Source of the DNA: Anaerolineae bacterium | GTDB lineage: Bacteria > Chloroflexota > Anaerolineae > Aggregatilineales > Phototrophicaceae | Length of the DNA stretch: 64,000 nucleotides | Direction of reading: 5' to 3' | Assembly: GCA_017303635.1 (NCBI GenBank) | Contig: JAFLCG010000002.1 | Span: forward strand, 156,918-220,917 | In this document: one piece after another, positions 32,231 through 63,751 of the stretch | Layout of the letters: the number at the start of each line of letters is the position of its first letter | How positions within the stretch are numbered: the first letter of the stretch is position 1 | The notes under the pieces: model-generated | Told to the model about the DNA's origin: nothing | What the model saw: only the letters and a program-made list of their open reading frames with translations | Database searches by the model: none | Translations under genes and position numbers: made by a program

Positions 32231-32550
32231 GGGAAGCGATCAGCTTGCAGCCGGAGGTCAATGGGGCTTCCGGTTGCGAGGCCGATCCACTGGAACAGAC
32301 GACGCTGAGTAAGTATTACTAGCTGTGGTCGGAAAAATATGTGGCAGTAGTCTTCGGCTTCGGCGGCCTGTACAACCACTCCAGCGATGCCAACATCTAC
32401 TTCCACCGGGATTACCGGAACAAGCAGATGGTCTTCACGGCGACGGCTGACATCGCCGCTGGGGAAGCATGCTTCGTCAACTACTATCAGGGATCAGACG
32501 AGGAAGTGGACCCGGCTAACCTGGACTTCAACGCCTACGAGAAGGCTTGA
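32230..32550 (+). pseudogene. SET-domain gene remnant: 5'-truncated, with an in-frame TAG
   Basis: A single frame reads ...[57 protein letters not shown]...TATADIAAGEACFVNYY. NHS-x-x-x-N plus the GE..(F/Y).NY motif are SET hallmarks. The TAG is at 32320-32322 and the N-terminal part is missing. Confidence 0.55.
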
Positions 32551-32847
32551 GGCGGTGACTGGACATTTTTGACAGATTCGACACGTTGGACAGCGGTTCG
32601 GCGCTCGTGCTGGCAGCAATCGCACTGGGGGGGGTGTTGCAGCGGTTGCTGCTATTTCAGCCGGGCGGTTTTGTTGGCAGTCTCTAAAGGGATTTCCTTC
32701 GGTCATGGCGGCTATGGCGGCTGTGGCAGACCCCCTCCGCCGCCACAAGCTTGTTGTCGTTGATGTCGTTGTCGGCTATTCCTTTTAGGGCCAAGGTGAC
32801 AAGCTCAGATCGTCTCACAGGATCACGATACCACAGATCGGGGCGGG

Positions 32848-32871
32848 AAATTGGAACATATGTTCCAATTT
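32848..32871. promoter_or_regulatory. 24-bp perfect palindrome with a GAAC-N4-GTTC (Cheo/SOS-box-like) core
   Basis: AAATTGGAACATATGTTCCAATTT. A near-identical copy lies at 63476-63501. Confidence 0.35.
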
Positions 32872-32894
32872 TGGGGCGAGTTTTGGTAGCGGCA

Positions 32895-32995
32895 GGGGCA
32901 AAGACAGACGCCTCACCCCCGCCCCTCTCCCGCGCGACCCTTAGCGGTTGGGCAGTTGAGATTATCCGGGGCCGGGTCGCTGGAGAGGGGAATCA
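32895..32995 (-). repeat. MITE-like inverted-repeat element (CCCCTCTCCAGCGAcCCG ... GGGTCGCGcGGGAGAGGGG..GGGGGTGAGGCGTCTGT)
   Basis: The reverse complement aligns with the copies at 59525-59615 and 62355-62439, including the GAGGCGTCTGT tail. Confidence 0.7.
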
Positions 32996-33240
32996 GGCGA
33001 GCAACAACAGCTTTTTGGCAATTTCGACGGCGACAGGTGTTACAACAGCAAGGTTCTTAGCTACTTCAATCAGACTCTTGCCTTTGATTTCCAAACTCCA
33101 TCGATTTGGTTCTTCTTTTGCAGCCGCCTCGATGGCTCCCTCAGCATATTCCTGAATAATAGAAGGATCGTTTATTCACAGTGCAAAAAGGTATAATCAC
33201 AGTATATAAATGAATTAGAAGATAGTGCTCCAAAAGAGAT

Positions 33241-35553
33241 ATGCGAATTCTAGCTGATTTCCACATACGCCCACTCCGTATGGCATACATTGTCAATCGC
33301 TCTATCAATCATAGCGATCTGAACTTGATATATAAATATAATACAGAGCATTGGGGAGGTCTTTATAATCTGTTTGTCCCCACAGATGGGGATTCAATAC
33401 GCAATGATTGGCTACATCTGCTTACCTTACACGATCCTGATGTTCTGTTCCTCGTGGGAGAGATTGATAGTGATCTCGTAGACTCACTTTATCTTTTGCT
33501 TCAGCCTTTAGGTATCTTCAATTGGGATGCAGTACTTTCTAATGTTATAGCTGGAAAACCAACAACTGTAGATGGGCTACAAGTTAATGCGATTCTTGAG
33601 AGTATTCTGGCGGAGAATGGTCGACAAAAGTTCGAACAATCTAATATGCGTTATCCTGAATCTTCTGGAGATTTCTCAAAATACTTGGAGATAATCTGTG
33701 GATCATGGCATTCGAATTCAAATTATCTGAAATTCTCTGAAGAATACTTGGGAGCGATCAAAACACCTTTACATCCCAGGACTTTGTCAGATTACCTGTC
33801 AAATCTGGACATGATACATGACCATGTTTTTCCACTTGATATTTCAGCACACCAACTAAAACCATCCTTTGGTCTTCCTTTTGCGCTATCGAATCATTCA
33901 GTTGTTGTGTCTAATGGGCTTATAGATGATTTGTTTCTATATCACGCGATGCGCTGGTCCGGCAGAAGCCGGAATCTCAAATGGTCAAAGATTATTGTCC
34001 CAATACAGTCGCTAGCATCAGATAATGACTATGATGTTTTGGCTAAATGGCTAGGTTCTTCGATTCGAGGAAATACATTTGATTTGGTAAGTCACAGCAT
34101 GGAAATGGATGTTCTCCAGGATATTCGAGAAAAATTACGTGTTTATCTGACTGAACGTTCATCATTAAGCGCGAGAAGTCATTGGCACATTCATATTCGT
34201 AGATGTAACGTGCATATTGCAGTTCCCACAGTTAGTCATCTAAAACGCACCCAACTTGTAGAAAAAAGAGAACAAGTATATTCCTTTGCAATTCCCAAAC
34301 TTAAGTTTGGTGGAGACGGCGGAGATCAGCGTTTTCAAAACAAGCAAATGATCTGTGAAGTAAATCTCTCACCTAAATTTGGAGATAAACGCGCCTATAC
34401 ACCTAGTATGTTTAGCCGTCTAAACTTCCTGCTTTCAGGTTATCCAAGTCTTGAATGGTTCCAACACACCTTTGCTCATATCAGAATTGCTCGTGGACAA
34501 CTTGCTCTGCTTATCGATAAAAATATTGACATGAATAGCATTAGGATCCCAAATGATAAAGTGACAATCGAAACAGCTTGTGAGGATGCTGGTTTTGAGG
34601 TTAAGGCGGATCAGAGGAACTACTACAAGGGGATAATGAGCCTATTAGGTAGCATAGAAAAAGCAAATTTTCTACATAACGCGAACATCCGCCAGATGTT
34701 TTTGGAGCGTAAATTCATAAAGGGAGAAGCCATTACTCATTCAGAGATAATTACTCCACTAAAGCGCAAGCAAGCTGACTCAGCGGATTTCGTTCAACTG
34801 GTTCAAGGATTGGCAGGAAACAAAATACTATTACGAGGTTATCAACTTAAGTGCCCAACCTGCGGTCTAGAATCATGGTACAACTTGGGTCACATGCGCG
34901 AACATATGCTCTGTGAGGGCTGTCAAACTCGATATCAATTGCCCTTGCAGGTTGACTTTGTATATAAGCTAAATCGTCTCTTTACAGATAAATATAATCA
35001 AGGTGTTGTAACTGTATTGCTCTCTCTCCTTCTTCTTAAGCAAACAAGCCGCGATGGGCTGATCTGGCAAGCAGATGTTAACCTAAAGAAAAATGACCAA
35101 GAAGTGGAGATAGATGTTATTGCCATGTGTGATGGGGCATTAATTCTGATCGAATGCAAAAATAGTTTCCTACCCTTTAACGACGGGAAGAATAAGGCTA
35201 ACTACGATATCAAACGCGACAAAGCTGTTAAAGACTTAGTCAATCAACTAGACCGACAAATTGCCATCGCACACAAGTTAGAAGCTCATCTGTTTTTGTT
35301 TGCAACTCTCGAGGATGATGTGCCAGATGAAGTCAAAGACTTCTTACATGAACAAGATTCCAAACATAATAAAATGCGAATCCGGCTAGTTGCTAAATCT
35401 GAGCTAATTGAGGGCAAGTTCAAAATAGATGGTGGAGAGAATAATTTTATATCAATATATGAAATCATTGGCAAAGATGTATTTGTAGAAGCCCATATAG
35501 CAGATGATTGTACCGATATCGAATTTCCTAAAGATGGAATAATTTTCTTTTAA
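33241..35553 (+). CDS. Hypothetical 770-aa protein: large unassigned N-terminal region + C4 zinc ribbon + PD-(D/E)xK / NERD-like nuclease domain
   Basis: A single long ORF in a strongly AT-rich segment. CPTC-x16-CEGC at aa 538-561. EVEIDVIAMCDGALILIECKNS at aa 621-642 gives D625-x12-E638-x-K640. No P-loop or helicase motifs seen. Confidence 0.75.
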   Translation: MRILADFHIRPLRMAYIVNRSINHSDLNLIYKYNTEHWGGLYNLFVPTDGDSIRNDWLHLLTLHDPDVLFLVGEIDSDLVDSLYLLLQPLGIFNWDAVLSNVIAGKPTTVDGLQVNAILESILAENGRQKFEQSNMRYPESSGDFSKYLEIICGSWHSNSNYLKFSEEYLGAIKTPLHPRTLSDYLSNLDMIHDHVFPLDISAHQLKPSFGLPFALSNHSVVVSNGLIDDLFLYHAMRWSGRSRNLKWSKIIVPIQSLASDNDYDVLAKWLGSSIRGNTFDLVSHSMEMDVLQDIREKLRVYLTERSSLSARSHWHIHIRRCNVHIAVPTVSHLKRTQLVEKREQVYSFAIPKLKFGGDGGDQRFQNKQMICEVNLSPKFGDKRAYTPSMFSRLNFLLSGYPSLEWFQHTFAHIRIARGQLALLIDKNIDMNSIRIPNDKVTIETACEDAGFEVKADQRNYYKGIMSLLGSIEKANFLHNANIRQMFLERKFIKGEAITHSEIITPLKRKQADSADFVQLVQGLAGNKILLRGYQLKCPTCGLESWYNLGHMREHMLCEGCQTRYQLPLQVDFVYKLNRLFTDKYNQGVVTVLLSLLLLKQTSRDGLIWQADVNLKKNDQEVEIDVIAMCDGALILIECKNSFLPFNDGKNKANYDIKRDKAVKDLVNQLDRQIAIAHKLEAHLFLFATLEDDVPDEVKDFLHEQDSKHNKMRIRLVAKSELIEGKFKIDGGENNFISIYEIIGKDVFVEAHIADDCTDIEFPKDGIIFF

Positions 35554-35572
35554 AGTGACGTATTAACAGAAA

Positions 35573-35599
35573 CAGCCACCCCATCAAATAGGGTGGCTG
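35573..35599. terminator. Bidirectional rho-independent terminator (island gene / clpC)
   Basis: cagccaccc-catcaaata-gggtggctg, flanked by a T-run on the plus strand (ttgtgttg) and an A-run upstream (reads tttctgtt on the minus strand). Confidence 0.7.
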
Positions 35600-35721
35600 T
35601 TGTGTTGCTACGTCGGGAGGACATACGCGCTGACGCGCTAGTCCTCCTCTACGAGTGTATACAATGGGTTGCGGGCGGACATGCGGACTCAGAAGGCCTT
35701 AGTCCGCCCCTACGGGAAAAT

Positions 35722-38232
35722 CTACGATACGCCGGCTTCGAACTCTTCTTCAACGGGTTCGAGCAGCAGTTCGCCGTCTTCACCGACGTTGATGCGGACG
35801 ACACTGCCGAGACGGAAGCGCCCGGCCAGAATGCCATCCGAGAGGGCGTCCTCGACCTCGTTGGTGATGAGGCGGCGCAGCGGGCGTGCCCCAAATTCGG
35901 GGTCGTAACCGCGGGTCGCCATCCAGTCGCGGGCTTCCTCGGTCAGGTCGATGGTGATGGCCTGTTCGATCAGGCGCTCACCGACCTTCCGCATCTCCAG
36001 ATCGACGATCTGCTTGATCTCGTCGCGGGTCAGCGGGCGGAAGATGATGGTGGCATCAACACGGTTGAGGAATTCCGGTCGGAAGGTACGGCGGAGTTCT
36101 TCCAGCACGTTCTTCTTGACTTCCTCGTAGGCCAGCATTTCTTCGCGTTCTTCATCGGTGGGCATGTCGAAGCCCAGGTAGGCCTGCCGCTTGAGGTTGG
36201 CCGCGCCGACATTGCTGGTCATGATGATGATGGCGTTGCGGAAGTTGACCAACCGGCCACGCGCATCGGTGAGCTGACCTTCTTCCATGATTTGAAGCAT
36301 GAGGTTGAAGGTATCCGGGTGCGCCTTTTCGATTTCGTCAAAGACGACGATGCTGTACGGGCGGCGGCGGATGGCCTCGGTCAGTTGACCGGCGTCCTCA
36401 TAACCGACGTAACCGGGCGGCGCACCAACCAGACGGGCGCTGGAATGGCGTTCCTGGAATTCGCTCATGTCGATCTGGATGAGGGCTTCTTCGCTGCCAA
36501 AGAGGAACTCTGCCAGCGCCTTGGTCAGTTCACTCTTACCGACACCCGTCGGGCCGAGGAACATGAACGAGCCGATGGGACGGCGCGGGTCTTTCAACCC
36601 GGCGCGGCTGCGGCGGACGGCCTTGCTGATGGCTTCGATGGCCTCGTGCTGCCCGATGATGCGGTTGTGCAGCGCGGATTCCATGTGGACCAGCTTTTCG
36701 CTCTCTTCGCCAGTCATGCGAACCGTGGGGATACCCGTCCACATGGAGATGACCTCGGCCACATCTTCCCCCATCAGGCGGGGCTGGTTGGTCTCCGAGT
36801 TCCAGTTGGCCTTCATGTCACCCAGCATATCGCGCAGGTTATCGCGGTGCATCCGCAACTGGGCGATCTCGGCAGCCTCGCCGCCTTCGGTCTCCATCAG
36901 TTGCAGGTCATCCTCGACACTGCTGAGTTCCTGCTCGGCCTTGCGGACCTGAGCGGCCTCCGGGGACTTGTACATGCGGAGGCGGGCTGCGCCTTCGTCA
37001 ATCAGGTCGATGGCCTTATCCGGCAGAAAGCGATCCGGCACGTAGCGGGCGGAAAGATTGGCCGCCGACTCGATGGCTTCGTCAGTGATTTCGACGTTGT
37101 GGTGTTCCTGATAAGGGATTTTGATCCCTTGCAGGATTTCGATGGTTTCTTCGATGGTGGGTTCATCCACCAGCACCTGCTGGAAGCGGCGTTCCAGGGC
37201 GGCATCACTTTCGATATGCTTGCGGTACTCGTCCAGCGTGGTCGCGCCGATGCACTGGAGTTCACCACGGGAAAGCGCCGGTTTCAGAATGTTGGCAGCA
37301 TCGACACTGCTCCCCGCAGAACCGGCACCGACCAGCATGTGGACTTCGTCAATGAAGAGGATGCAGTTGGAGGACTTGAGTTCCTCGATGACGCGCTTGA
37401 GGCGTTCTTCAAACTGACCGCGATACATGGTACCGGCGACCAGTGAGCCGACATCCAGTTGGTAGACGCGCTTTTCCAGCAGTGGACGCGGGACTTCCCG
37501 CATGACGATGCGCTGGGCCAGCCCTTCGACGATGGCGGTCTTGCCGACACCGGGTTCACCGATCAGCGCCGGGTTGTTCTTACGGCGGCGGCTGAGCACC
37601 TGGATCACGCGCTCGATTTCCGTCTCACGCCCAACCACCGGATCGAGCTTGCCTTCTTCAGCCAGCGCGGTCAGGTCGGTTGCCAGTTGATCGAGCAGCG
37701 GGGTCTTGTTTTCGCCGGACTTGGTGGTCTTGGTACCTGCCTTGGCGGCTTCCTTCCGTTCGGGTTCCTGCTGCACCGGGCTTTCCTGCAGGACGCGGCG
37801 GGTCTGGCGGCGGACTTCTTCCGGGCTGATCGCCAGCTTCTTCAGCACATCAATCGCCACGCCTTCCGACTGGCGCACCAGACCGAGCAGCAGATGCTCG
37901 GTGCCGATGTAGTGATGGCCCATCCGACGGGCTTCATCAACCGCCAATTCCAACACGCGCTTGGTCCCGGCGGAGAGGTCAATCTGACCGCCGCTGCTGG
38001 AACGCGACGTGGCGCGGGTGAGTTCCTCTACGAGGCGCTCCACCTTCGGCAGCTCCAACCCCAGATCACGCAACACCCGGCCTGCAACGCCGCCATCTTC
38101 GCGCATGAGGCCGAGGAGGAGGTGTTCCGTGCCAATATAATTGTGCTTTAAACGTTCGGCTTCTTCCGACGCCAGGCTGAGCACACGCCGGGCGCGCTGC
38201 GTAAAACGCTCCATCTTATTGTTATTCGCCAC
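35722..38232 (-). CDS. clpC: ATP-dependent Clp protease ATP-binding subunit ClpC
   Basis: Two Clp_N repeats ([33 protein letters not shown]), AAA+ D1 GEPGVGKT, a UVR-like linker, AAA+ D2 GPTGVGKS and the sensor GARPLRR. Confidence 0.92.
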
Positions 38233-62210: not shown

Positions 62211-62354
62211 TACAGTTGCCCTAAGGACCATCAAGCTAGATATTGGAATTGCTGACATAAACATGCGGAATGGAAACACTATAGCCTGAGTTGCAAATCA
62301 TTGCTATCAATCAAATATTAAAGAAAAGTAAACCCTTCTGCTGCCGTACTTACT

Positions 62355-62439
62355 CCCCTTTCCAGCGACCCGACTCCCAGATAGTCTCCCTTTCCCATCA
62401 AGTAAGGGTCGCGGCGGGAGAGGGGTTGGGGGTGAGGCG
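62355..62439 (+). repeat. MITE-like inverted-repeat element, copy flanking the TIR island (right)
   Basis: cccctttccagcgacccgactc...gggtcgcggcgggagaggggttgggggtgaggcg. Same orientation as 59525-59615. Confidence 0.7.
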
Positions 62440-62890
62440 TCTGTGCGGCACACTTAGAAACACGCTGGCGCAGCTTGTTGATCCCAACTTCAGGGACGCG
62501 GAGGGGTGAGGCGTCTGTGCAGCACGCTTAGAAGCGTGCTGGCAGAGGTTGTTTATCCCAACTTCAGGGACGCGGAGGGGTGAGGCGTCTGTGCGGCACG
62601 CTTAGAAACGCACTGGCGCAGCTTGTTTATCCCAACTCCAGGGACGCGGAGGGGTGAGGCGTCTGTGCAGCACGCTTGGAAACGTGCTGGCAGAGGTTGT
62701 TTATCCCAACTTCAGGGACGCGGAGGGGGTGAGGCGATCCTGCGGCACGCTTGGAAACGTGCTGGCGCCGGTTGTTTATCCCAACTTCAGGGACGCGGAG
62801 GGGTGAGGCGTCTGTGCGGCACGCTTAGAAACACGCTGGCGCAGCTTGTTGATCCCAACTTCAGACACGCGGAGGGGTGAGGCGGTACTG
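62431..62890 (+). repeat. 74-bp tandem repeat, 6 full units + 1 diverged partial unit
   Basis: GGTGAGGCG unit starts at 62431, 62505, 62579, 62653, 62728, 62802 and 62876 (period 74, with one of 75). Units alternate between two subtypes. Confidence 0.9.
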
Positions 62891-62991
62891 CGCTACCGCT
62901 AGAAACCCCTCCATTCGACTCACAACCTCAATCCATCGCCCATCCCATCTCGCCTAGAATCGAATTACACACATCGAAAGGAGCAACCCCC

Positions 62992-63378
62992 ATGTCCGAT
63001 GACCACCCCGACCAGTACACCGTCAAGCGGGAACGGTGGGGGACGCTCAAAGCCCGCTCCCGCGAGATGCGCCACCAACCCACCTCCGCCGAAGAGCACC
63101 TGTGGAAGTACCTGCGCGGACGGCGGCTCAACGGAGCCAAGTTCCGCCGCCAGCACGCCATTGACCAGTTCATCGTCGATTTTGTCTGCATCGAGCAGCT
63201 GTTGATTGTGGAGGTGGATGGCCTCGTCCATGAAGTTCCCGACCAGCGCGACCGGGATGTGAATCGGCAGGCGCACCTGGAAGGCATGGGTTATCGTATA
63301 CTGCGCTTCACCAATGCCGAGGTACTGCAATCGGTGAGGGCGGTACTGGAAGTCATCGGCGCGGCCTTGCAGGAATAG
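62992..63378 (+). CDS. DUF559 (Vsr-like fold) endonuclease-domain protein
   Basis: EEHLWKYLRGRRLNGAKFRRQHAIDQFIVDFVCIEQLLIVEVDG...RDRDVNRQAHLEGMGYRILRFTNAEV. Confidence 0.85.
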   Translation: MSDDHPDQYTVKRERWGTLKARSREMRHQPTSAEEHLWKYLRGRRLNGAKFRRQHAIDQFIVDFVCIEQLLIVEVDGLVHEVPDQRDRDVNRQAHLEGMGYRILRFTNAEVLQSVRAVLEVIGAALQE

Positions 63379-63475
63379 CGCACTTCATCACGGCGGCGAA
63401 CTGCCTCCAGGTACGAATGAGATGCGGCCAGGCTCCGCGACTGTGTAGGGCAGGTTTGCCCCTGAAAATCGACAC

Positions 63476-63501
63476 AAAATCGGAACATATGTTCCGATTT
63501 T
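63476..63501. promoter_or_regulatory. 26-bp perfect palindrome with a GAAC-N4-GTTC core (second copy)
   Basis: AAAATCGGAACATATGTTCCGATTTT, about 250 nt upstream of chrA. Confidence 0.35.
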
Positions 63502-63751
63502 CAACCCCAATCGCTGCTATCCTATCTACAGGTCTGGTACCCATTCGGCAACCAGCGTCCAGACCTGACAAAAGGGCAAACTTCACTGCCGGGTCATCGC
63601 CGCCGCCGCCGCCGCCGCAAAAGTCCACGCGACGATCATCACCCACCTGAACCCGCACCCATCCGTTAATCATCCTTAATCGTCGCGCACTGGAATGGCG
63701 GGCTGCCGATGGCTACCATAGCCGCACCCTGCTAGCCACACCGGAGCTGCC

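Follow-up and report, generated by a model that had tools for sequence, protein, structure and literature searches.

A widespread, unnamed family of stand-alone zinc-ribbon/PD-(D/E)xK nucleases carried as AT-rich single-gene cassettes: candidate single-protein defence effectors

Between two housekeeping genes, a Pat-like gene and clpC, the 64-kb stretch of DNA analysed here (the window) holds an AT-rich island with one intact gene inside. This locus raises the question of what the 770-residue product of that gene does, and whether it is an isolated curiosity or a representative of something more general. The features of the island and its immediate borders are as follows (positions are those of the window):

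33002..35590, no strand: AT-rich single-gene island of about 2.6 kb, with G+C change points at 33002 and 35572-35590
32996..33175, minus strand: start-less open frame of 60 codons within the AT-rich patch, seen by translation
33192..33197, plus strand: TATAAT hexamer, a possible -10 box, seen in the sequence 44 nt upstream of the start codon
33241..35553 (stop codon included), plus strand: gene of the zinc-ribbon/PD-(D/E)xK nuclease family, 770 aa, from the list of open reading frames and full-length homologues
35557..35614, no strand: extended palindrome of 58 nt that separates the 770-aa gene from clpC, the two genes being convergent

The G+C content is 0.40 over the island as a whole and 0.37-0.41 across 33000-35600, against 0.57-0.66 in the flanks (0.60-0.66 upstream of the island and 0.58-0.64 in clpC). 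At third codon positions it is 0.344 in the 770-aa gene versus 0.76 in clpC and 0.79 in the Pat-like gene. The sharp AT-richness of 33000-35610 and the single long reading frame within it, both described in the initial annotation, are thus upheld, and the proposal that this is a horizontally acquired single-gene island is supported. Searches of the island ends recovered no inverted repeats, direct repeats or target duplications, and no tRNA genes were found across the 64-kb window. The database gene call for the protein gives 757 residues starting at M14; this start would drop R10 and P11, which are conserved in the family, and we therefore take the ATG at 33241 to be the real one. The TATAAT box reported upstream is present, but it has no acceptable -35 hexamer upstream of it and a sigma-70 consensus scan called no promoter at this site. 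At the other end, the palindrome at 35557-35614 contains an inverted repeat whose 14-nt arms enclose a loop of 3 nt, and its RNA is predicted to fold with -33.2 kcal/mol (z -8.95) on the plus strand and -35.2 kcal/mol (z -7.81) on the minus strand; a terminator-like site was called inside it on the plus strand (35581-35596). The strong bidirectional terminator that had been suggested is therefore borne out in part: the palindrome is very stable on both strands, but the U-tracts are weak on both. It is probably the shared transcription stop of the 770-aa gene and clpC.

The left border had been described as an accumulation of repeats and gene remnants, most of which are real. The SET remnant is the C-terminal part of such a domain (PF00856, 26.7 bits versus a cut-off of 22.4), and the palindrome is a perfect one of 24 nt (32848-32871) with a twin copy at 63477-63500. 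The start-less frame on the minus strand lacks a Pfam match and has no counterpart at any homologue locus; it is probably the remnant of a gene that came in with the island. The supposed MITE-like copy does exist as a repeat, but it is a single unit of a repeat that occurs in tandem, with a 74-nt period, at 62.4-63.0 kb. A CRISPR array was considered for this latter region, in which a 16-nt motif recurs every 74 nt, and was rejected; whole units resemble one another at 84-89% and are not separated by unique spacers, which makes it a plain tandem repeat.

Word-index searches with the 770-aa protein returned four or five relatives, but this apparent rarity proved to be an artefact of the index when an exhaustive profile search was run. 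The latter recovered 1,226 cluster representatives with E<=1e-3, of which 82 reached E<=1e-30. The protein is thus no orphan but one of a family that exceeds 1,200 clusters, with members in Chloroflexota, Actinomycetota and Beta-/Gammaproteobacteria that are labelled "hypothetical protein" in every source. All six modules of the protein (see below) are present in 113 of 154 retrieved proteins; the remainder are fragments, and none is combined with another effector. At 17 of the 19 loci compared, the gene has a lower G+C content than its host or flanks, the difference reaching 20 points, and the AT-rich patch is limited to the family gene in all nine loci tested. The 90% clusters that we looked up are nearly all singletons on one contig. 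We conclude that the family is large, unnamed and passing between bacteria as a single-gene cassette, and that it offers an unusually clean case of a gene that remains AT-rich while moving in this form among GC-rich genomes.

The gene might have no part in defence. It could serve selfish or maintenance ends of mobile elements, such as a homing-type nuclease spreading its own cassette, competition between plasmids or ICEs, or DNA processing, or it could be a decaying passenger that has no present function in this genome. The precise single-gene cassettes at unrelated intergenic sites, which bring along no integrase or transposase and show neither inverted repeats nor target duplications, are in keeping with this, as are the copies on plasmids of Rhodococcus, Kitasatospora, Streptomyces, Burkholderia and Piscirickettsia and those beside recombinases or in IS-dense regions. 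Known homing endonucleases, however, are far smaller than a 770-residue protein with six conserved modules. The NERD domain, to which the nuclease of this family is related, was originally described in connection with a virulence plasmid and DNA processing on it (Grynberg and Godzik 2004). Against a role of this kind, only about 5 of 72,556 plasmids carry the gene, which argues that it is not a core plasmid function. Likewise, we detected no close relatives in the 2.9 million viral contigs of IMG/VR and no match to the 770-aa protein in 50,697 phage genomes. The viral structures of BFVD gave generic restriction-endonuclease-like matches only. Decay is made less likely by a reading frame that is unbroken and retains every catalytic and signature residue. 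We regard a non-defensive role as distinctly unlikely.

To characterize the protein itself, we used a 112-member alignment, in which members share 17-45% identity, and an AlphaFold2 model built from these 112 sequences (pLDDT 93.3, pTM 0.92), which supersedes an earlier model from 5 sequences (pLDDT 58). These delineate six modules in a fixed order:

33241..33555, plus strand: module 1, Rossmann-like alpha/beta domain (aa 1-105; beta-beta-alpha-beta-alpha-beta-alpha-beta)
33556..34185, plus strand: module 2, helical region followed by a second Rossmann-like alpha/beta domain at about aa 200-310 (aa 106-315)
34186..34551, plus strand: module 3, beta-rich domain with a nearly invariant R415, from model and conservation, without a family match (aa 316-437)
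34552..34824, plus strand: module 4, mainly helical, with the family consensus motif SDKGxY, without a family match (aa 438-528)
34825..34956, plus strand: module 5, four-cysteine zinc ribbon with R532-G533, C538, C541, W546-Y547, C558 and C561 (aa 529-572)
34957..35430, plus strand: module 6, PD-(D/E)xK nuclease, NERD/Card1-like, by Pfam NERD, PDB profile and Foldseek (aa 573-730)

Module 1 is the most conserved of these, with 13 of its 105 columns at least 80% conserved, and together with the zinc ribbon it makes up the best-conserved parts of the protein. It is typified by a family signature of the form R10-P11 ... W38-G-G ... P47-T-D-G50 ... D65-P-D67 ... P89. A profile of this module retrieved nothing from the PDB (best E 0.8) or Pfam. 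Module 2, in contrast, is variable, with 5 of 192 columns conserved and a length of 195-268 residues across the family; the strands of its second domain are predicted at 219-224, 250-254 and 279-283 with helices between them. The initial annotation had been unable to place the first ~530 residues in a family, and searches of aa 1-530 in Pfam, NCBIfam and PADLOC, all without a match, agree with this. The N-terminus, which it called sensor-like, is not a variable, swappable sensor: the order of modules does not change, and aa 1 to ~105 rank with the best-conserved stretches of the protein. None of the six modules is markedly basic.

The C-terminal third matches its earlier description closely. 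The CPTC-x16-CEGC motif at aa 538-561 is present (C538-P-T-C541, 16 residues, C558-E-G-C561), and all four cysteines are invariant among the 112 family members. Beta-hairpins are predicted at aa 530-566, and recurrent weak Pfam matches to Zn_ribbon_IS1595 were obtained in 19 of 57 members. The D625-x12-E638-x-K640 signature of PD-(D/E)xK and NERD nucleases is likewise present and conserved, with D625 (codon at 35113-35115) invariant and E638 and K640 (codon of the latter at 35158-35160) at least 90% conserved in the same 112 members. The restriction-endonuclease-like core anticipated for this region is seen in the AlphaFold model as alpha(589-602)-beta(606-617)-beta(620-630)-beta(633-640)-alpha(652-679)-beta(684-689). 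This is the canonical alpha-beta-beta-beta-alpha-beta core of the PD-(D/E)xK superfamily, with D625 on strand 2 and E638 and K640 on strand 3. Together, alignment and model show that the predicted nuclease fold and its catalytic residues are intact and under selection.

Within this superfamily, the Pfam NERD model (PF08378) matches aa 599-680 with 26.2 bits, above its gathering cut-off of 22.1. Across the family such matches number 1 of 57 members at E<=0.01 and no more than 8 of 57 even at E<=5, which places the family at the edge of the NERD model. Comparison with PADLOC-DB v2.0 gave no full-length match to a catalogued defence family but did return short, weak matches confined to the nuclease module, the best at 4.7e-6 in 1 of 57 members; for the 770-aa protein these include a weak match to the viperin-associated NERD model. 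Unlike Nhi, which carries a helicase, and the viperin-associated NERD proteins, the family has neither a helicase nor a viperin neighbour; membership of Nhi was considered and rejected. Shedu-type systems had been offered as an analogy, and with Shedu (SduA, DUF4263) the protein does share the logic of a single protein with a C-terminal PD-(D/E)xK nuclease and a regulatory N-terminus. However, Shedu N-termini are variable and swappable, whereas the present family has a fixed architecture and a highly conserved N-terminal module. Moreover, the Shedu/DUF4263 models of PADLOC and Pfam matched neither the 770-aa protein at E<=10 nor the 57 members, so that the analogy does not extend to membership.

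A precedent for a single-protein effector is ZwsA (Zowangsin), a stand-alone multidomain NERD protein of ~82 kDa that has been shown experimentally to defend Pseudomonas aeruginosa against RNA phages and that occurs in horizontally acquired islands (bioRxiv 10.64898/2026.04.06.716636). The family could comprise RNA-targeting effectors of this kind, in which structured viral RNA is recognised by the accessory domains and selectively cleaved. ZwsA is comparable in size, NERD lies towards its C-terminal end, and the spacing of its D567, E580 and K582 is identical to that of D625, E638 and K640; further, Cdn1 and Can2, the structurally closest characterised nucleases (see below), cleave ssRNA (PMC12825302). 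On the other hand, by its published description, on which our comparison is based, ZwsA has VHS, DUF647 and S4 domains, with no mention of a zinc ribbon, while the VHS, DUF647 and S4 families of Pfam were found in none of the 57 members. The hosts also weigh against this reading, which we consider very unlikely: for most of them no RNA phages are known.

The strongest structural relationship that we recovered is with Can2, Card1, Cdn1 and VC1899 (DUF1887), CRISPR ancillary nucleases that combine CARF4 with a PD-(D/E)xK domain and are gated by cyclic oligoadenylate. In Foldseek searches with the full-length model these were the sole significant PDB matches (Cdn1 4e-6, VC1899 7e-6, Can2/Card1 2e-4 to 9e-4), whereas the nuclease-only AF1548 reached an E of just 0.04; the low-confidence 5-sequence model ranked its PDB neighbours identically. 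The alignments to Cdn1, VC1899, Can2 and Card1 extend over 530-590 columns, which is longer than the nuclease by itself, but with an rmsd of 17-20 A and a TM-score of 0.24-0.37. Sequence comparisons bring in only the nuclease part of these proteins: the best PDB sequence match of the family profile falls on the Cdn1 nuclease domain (residues 294-370 only, E 0.0037), Card1_endonuc gave weak matches in 7 of 57 members, and the PADLOC CARF_PDDEXK and Csx1 matches span the nuclease part only (262-300 in a profile of 364 positions and 284-337 in one of 382, respectively). No CARF domain was found by sequence profile in PADLOC, the PDB profile search or Pfam, only the nuclease module being aligned. 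The resemblance to CARF nucleases in the model could stem from the nuclease domain together with a generic Rossmann-like match.

The two designs nevertheless have in common one or more Rossmann-like alpha/beta domains N-terminal to a PD-(D/E)xK nuclease, which makes an allosterically gated nuclease the natural working model (for the mechanism of Cdn1 see PMC12825302). There are also differences: at 770 residues the protein is double the size of the Can2-type proteins (~350-430 aa), its first alpha/beta domain is separated from the nuclease by four extra modules and the zinc ribbon, and no linkage was found for the family to type III CRISPR-Cas and its Cas10 cyclase, with which the Can2-type nucleases are linked. 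Neither Cas10 nor a CD-NTase nor a CRISPR array was detected in the 64-kb window, and none of these turned up among 97 neighbour ORFs of 13 loci; one weak Cas10 match (E 0.0011) fell on a family member and not on a neighbour. Without a CARF match at the sequence level or an association with type III CRISPR/Cas10, membership in Can2 was rejected.

In about half of the loci, genes for pAgo, restriction-modification (R-M), toxin-antitoxin systems, integrases or IS elements lie nearby, or the gene is on a plasmid. A long pAgo is 7 bp from the family gene in L004 and a type IIG R-M enzyme is 95 bp from it in L012; an N6-methylase, PIN and ResIII are neighbours in L007, an integrase, Dcm, Vsr and HATPase_c_3 in L015, and HicA/HicB in L017-L020, while HEPN_LA2681 occurs 2.7 kb downstream in L001. 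The other half, this window included with its Pat-like gene and ClpC, have housekeeping neighbours only. The company of pAgo, R-M, HicAB, integrase islands and IS-dense plasmids suits a defence or accessory gene. A conserved partner was sought across 19 loci and none was found; the lack of any gene common to them indicates that the protein acts alone, as its description as a stand-alone gene had implied.

These same neighbourhoods are pertinent to another possibility, namely that the family consists of modification-dependent (type IV-like) or otherwise DNA-feature-directed restriction nucleases. Here the zinc ribbon and a middle module, the beta-rich or the helical domain, would read a modified base or unusual structure in foreign DNA, and the PD-(D/E)xK domain would then cut straight away, no small molecule being needed as a trigger. 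Type IV enzymes that join a reader and a PD-(D/E)xK domain in a single chain form an established class. Their wH-fusion examples are among the material covered in PMC11037411. The lack of a methyltransferase partner conserved over the 19 loci, the R-M genes that neighbour the family gene in L007, L012 and L015, the zinc ribbon directly adjoining the nuclease and the variable middle modules, which could follow diverse targets, would all accord with such a role. Yet SRA, EVE/PUA, YTH and DpnI-like winged-helix readers were not detected in any of the 57 members at Pfam E<=5, no type IV enzyme was among the significant Foldseek matches, the lack of a markedly basic module does not favour it, and the strongest conservation in the protein, that of module 1, is left unexplained. 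We see this alternative as unlikely, and with no modified-base reader domain in those members, assignment to type IV restriction was rejected.

The explanation that we favour, with moderate confidence, is that this is a widespread unnamed family of stand-alone nucleases of ~750-850 residues in the mobile accessory genome, and that they are most likely single-protein effectors against phages or plasmids. The defence role proposed in the initial annotation is one that we infer from genomic context only. In such an effector, the N-terminal modules would hold the nuclease inactive. By analogy with the Can2/Card1/Cdn1 structures, a trigger would bind the conserved pocket of module 1, perhaps aided by the variable middle modules, and its binding would rearrange or dimerise the nuclease domains; the zinc ribbon would help to hold nucleic acid, and the enzyme would then cut that of the invader or the host. 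The module 1 signature (R10, W38-G-G, P47-T-D-G50, D67) is pocket-like, and its strong conservation is compatible with an enzymatic role as well as with sensing. A more specific version, which we think improbable, is that module 1 is a new small-molecule or nucleotide sensor, CARF/SAVED-like but unrelated in sequence, that gates a Can2-type nuclease without a signal-making partner. It would then act as a free-standing 'listener', set off by a signal that originates in an unlinked host system, infection-induced metabolism or the phage, and the persistent AT-rich single-gene cassette form would mirror the constant horizontal exchange of a self-contained unit.

If the family is indeed a defence effector, it adds a widespread and compact single-gene system, with more than 1,200 sequence clusters in at least three phyla, and its N-terminal region of ~530 residues would be a regulatory part to which nothing in Pfam, NCBIfam, PADLOC or the PDB corresponds. 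Its structural resemblance to Can2/Card1/Cdn1 offers the concrete hypothesis of an allosterically gated PD-(D/E)xK nuclease, and the resemblance to Can2-type proteins without a linked cyclase raises the question of what triggers it. A profile from the 112-member alignment would put a name on many 'hypothetical' proteins, and the AT-rich cassettes should be useful for the study of how genes are acquired, silenced and retained. One copy of the family gene adjoins that for the xenogeneic silencer Lsr2.

The initial annotation had singled out a segment richer in A+T than its surroundings and carrying one long ORF, and both observations hold: G+C is 0.37-0.41 inside the patch versus 0.60-0.66 upstream and 0.58-0.64 downstream, and the ORF spans 770 codons (33241..35553, + strand). 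Change-point analysis of G+C placed the borders of this island at 33002 and 35572-35590. Third-position G+C is 0.344 in the 770-aa gene, as against 0.76 in clpC and 0.79 in the Pat-like gene, indicating that the island differs in codon usage and not in amino-acid content alone. Its neighbors on both sides are ordinary genes:

Upstream of the island: Pat-like gene, an ADP-forming acetyl-CoA synthetase/GNAT fusion
32341-32550, + strand, directly 3' of the Pat-like gene: 69-codon ORF, a truncated SET-domain gene
Downstream of the island: convergent ClpC gene, then hydrolase and TetR regulator genes

The 69-codon ORF, earlier read as a SET remnant, indeed matches the last third of that domain only (PF00856 positions 64-104 of 105; 26.7 bits). 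Terminal repeats and target duplications are absent at the island borders, and the window holds no tRNA. The TATAAT proposed as a promoter box is present at 33192-33197, but it lacks a -35 partner and was not called by a promoter scan. As for the supposed strong bidirectional terminator, the element at 35557-35614 is a 58-nt extended palindrome of very high stability on either strand (-33.2 and -35.2 kcal/mol; z about -9 and -8), though only weak U-tracts accompany it. The right arm of this palindrome overlaps a 617-codon ORF (35593-37446, + strand) antisense to clpC, which we rejected as a gene, since spurious long ORFs of this kind are typical of GC-rich DNA.

Both C-terminal motifs of the 770-aa window protein were found exactly as described, namely the zinc ribbon C538-x2-C541-x16-C558-x2-C561 and the nuclease signature D625-x12-E638-x-K640. 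A Pfam search made the protein a marginal member of NERD (aa 599-680; 26.2 bits versus a cut-off of 22.1), with all other matches being sub-threshold ones to zinc-ribbon families. It had no match in NCBIfam, nothing significant among PDB sequences, and in PADLOC only weak matches to the nuclease part of the CARF-PD-(D/E)xK and Csx1 models. A word-index search yielded only four full-length relatives, and hence the protein appeared to be an orphan. This status was overturned when a profile of the N-terminal 520 residues was run exhaustively with HMMER: 1,226 cluster representatives were recovered at E<=1e-3, of which 474 reached <=1e-10 and 82 reached <=1e-30, and the length of most was 745-850 aa. 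The window protein thus belongs to a large, unannotated and sporadically distributed family: the source names retrieved for its members are all "hypothetical protein" and no PADLOC family covers them. That the N-terminal 530 residues fall in no recognizable family proved true of the relatives as well, a covering Pfam family being found in 0 of 57 members even at E<=5; the weak matches that recurred among these were Zn_ribbon_IS1595 (19), UPF0515 (11), NERD (8) and Card1_endonuc (7).

An alignment of 112 full-length members, with 17-45% identity to the window protein, gave an excellent AlphaFold model (pLDDT 93.3, pTM 0.92), as against a poor one from five sequences (pLDDT 58). The following elements precede the nuclease in the model:

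aa 1-105 (module 1): Rossmann-like alpha/beta domain
aa 106-315 (module 2): helical stretch, then a second alpha/beta domain at about aa 200-310
aa 316-437 (module 3): beta-rich domain
aa 438-528 (module 4): helical domain
aa 530-566: zinc-ribbon hairpins

The nuclease itself adopts the expected restriction-endonuclease-like core in canonical alpha-beta-beta-beta-alpha-beta order, with D625 on strand 2 and E638 and K640 on strand 3. In the 112-member alignment the four zinc-ribbon cysteines and D625 are invariant, and positions conserved in at least 90% of members include E638, K640, R532-G533 and W546 in the C-terminal part, and R10, P11, W38-G39-G40, P47, P66-D67 and P89 in the N-terminal part. 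Conservation is highest in module 1 and the zinc ribbon, with modules 2-4 being variable in sequence and length. Module-by-module profiles detected all six modules in 113 of the 154 retrieved proteins, the remainder being fragments at contig ends; another effector or an extra domain was never seen among the 154. Judging from these sequences, the architecture of the family is fixed, and within it an intact and conserved PD-(D/E)xK nuclease of the NERD-Card1 type adjoins the zinc ribbon. The public gene call for the window protein begins at M14 (757 aa; 33280 instead of 33241), which removes R10 and P11; as these two positions show family-wide conservation, the true start is the ATG at 33241. 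Automated start calls may go wrong likewise in other AT-rich islands of GC-rich genomes.

Foldseek searches of the PDB with the model recovered only CARF + PD-(D/E)xK ancillary nucleases with significant E-values (Cdn1 4e-6, VC1899 7e-6, Can2 and Card1 2e-4 to 9e-4), while the nuclease-only AF1548 scored 0.04; the ranking was identical with the poor five-sequence model. The alignments extend over 530-590 columns, which suggests that a Rossmann-like domain was co-aligned with CARF, though at an rmsd of 17-20 A and in output that does not give the aligned residues. Beyond these matches the N-terminal 530 residues showed no likeness to PDB structures, and a viral structure library added nothing. 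In profile searches of PDB sequences, Cdn1 was the best match of the family, by the nuclease domain alone, and module 1 found nothing. We assign the nuclease to the Card1/Can2/NERD type, and the predicted layout of one or more putative Rossmann-like domains leading into it resembles that of the ligand-gated CARF nucleases, a likeness that does not amount to a claim of CARF identity. Membership in Can2/Card1 was rejected: the window protein has neither a sequence-level CARF nor the type III context of those proteins, and is twice their size. Nor is it a member of Shedu, to which its logic had been likened, or of any other PADLOC family.

The genomic comparison covered 19 distinct loci. The named sources are an Aggregatilineales and an Anaerolineaceae MAG in Chloroflexota; a member named for Nocardia aurea and plasmids of Rhodococcus, Kitasatospora and Streptomyces in Actinomycetota; and, in Pseudomonadota, a Piscirickettsia plasmid and a conjugative plasmid of Burkholderia glumae that encodes a full family member (E 2e-73). 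The B. glumae copy is of native proteobacterial composition. The distant copies retain all signature residues. No close relatives were found in 2.9 million viral contigs, and no match to the window protein in 50,697 phage genomes. In 17 of the 19 loci the flanks exceed the gene in G+C, by 3 to 20 points, and in all nine loci tested the AT-rich patch takes in, besides the gene, 70-450 bp on its upstream side and 10-630 bp on its downstream side. The single-gene AT-rich island is a trait of the family and not peculiar to the window, and the gene was acquired horizontally as a single-gene cassette. No neighboring gene is common to the 19 loci, indicating that the protein is stand-alone. About half of the loci, the window included, have housekeeping neighbors, and the other half have defense or mobile genes nearby, among them:

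L004, 5563-7749, - strand: full-length long pAgo (PADLOC pAgo, E 3.7e-153)
L012: type IIG R-M, 95 bp upstream of the family gene
L007: N6-methylase, PIN and ResIII near the family gene
L015/L016, 80-9035: integrase-bounded island with Dcm-type methylase, Vsr, HATPase_c_3, excisionase-like HTH and several unannotated ORFs adjoining the family member
L017-L020 (e.g. L017 12731-13163): HicB-like/HicA pair immediately 3' of the family gene, in one branch, on four independent metagenome contigs
L008: PrimPol-like and HerA-like genes near the family gene
L014, 15053-15391, - strand: Lsr2 xenogeneic silencer, 2.6 kb from the member named for Nocardia aurea

The L004 pAgo, of native G+C, lies downstream of and convergent to the AT-rich gene for P0002, the closest homolog, 7 bp from its stop codon. 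The L015/L016 island may be a composite defense island. In L017-L020 the AT-rich patch reaches over the HicB-like/HicA pair, and the two could form a two-part cassette with the family gene. The L014 region is IS-rich and variable, and its Lsr2 bears on the possible silencing of AT-rich acquired nuclease genes in high-GC hosts. Plasmid copies lie in IS-dense or recombinase-flanked regions, and the nuclease may alternatively be selfish, or maintain mobile elements.

We favor a defense or anti-mobile-element effector, judging by the company that the gene keeps, by its distribution as an accessory gene and by precedents, among them the stand-alone NERD effector ZwsA of P. aeruginosa strains PMM19, PMM38, PMM44 and PMM55 (bioRxiv 10.64898/2026.04.06.716636). 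The catalytic spacing of ZwsA is identical to that of the window protein's triad, and an RNA-targeting enzyme like ZwsA may be envisaged, as may a type IV-like restriction enzyme directed by DNA features. In Can2, Card1 and Cdn1, the nuclease dimer and its active site form anew when a ligand binds to the Rossmann-fold domain (PMC12825302). By analogy, the N-terminal modules of the favored defense effector would keep the nuclease inactive until they sense a trigger. In module 1, the near-invariant residues resemble those of a binding pocket or catalytic site rather than of a fast-evolving sensor of phage proteins. A single-protein accessory-genome nuclease with a regulatory N-terminus is a familiar category; the N-terminal 530 residues and the fixed architecture are undescribed, with ZwsA compared by its description only. 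Candidate defense nucleases are numerous and the function here is one that we infer, but the family is a well-defined and widespread candidate amenable to experiment, for which there are a high-confidence model and a specific hypothesis.

No Cas10, CD-NTase or CRISPR array is present in the window. Elsewhere in it, further PADLOC matches were to PDC-S03 and a PtuB-like protein, those to mad3, mad8 and AriA being rejected as ABC-ATPase cross-matches; other ORFs are Imm5-like, Uma2 (a putative restriction endonuclease) and DUF559. About seven 74-nt units, 84-89% alike, form an intergenic array (62428-62980) upstream of a small DUF559-type ORF (62992-63378); since entire units repeat, it is a tandem repeat and a CRISPR reading was rejected. 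A small family of dispersed intergenic repeats occurs at 32827-32991 and at 62354-62444 / 63465-63521, one copy adjoining the left border of the island, where a 91-nt stretch (32904-32991) has 82% identity to the left end of the array. The palindrome noted at this border is a perfect one of 24 nt (AAATTGGAACATATGTTCCAATTT, 32848-32871), and it has a twin with 2 mismatches at 63477-63500, where chance would predict none.
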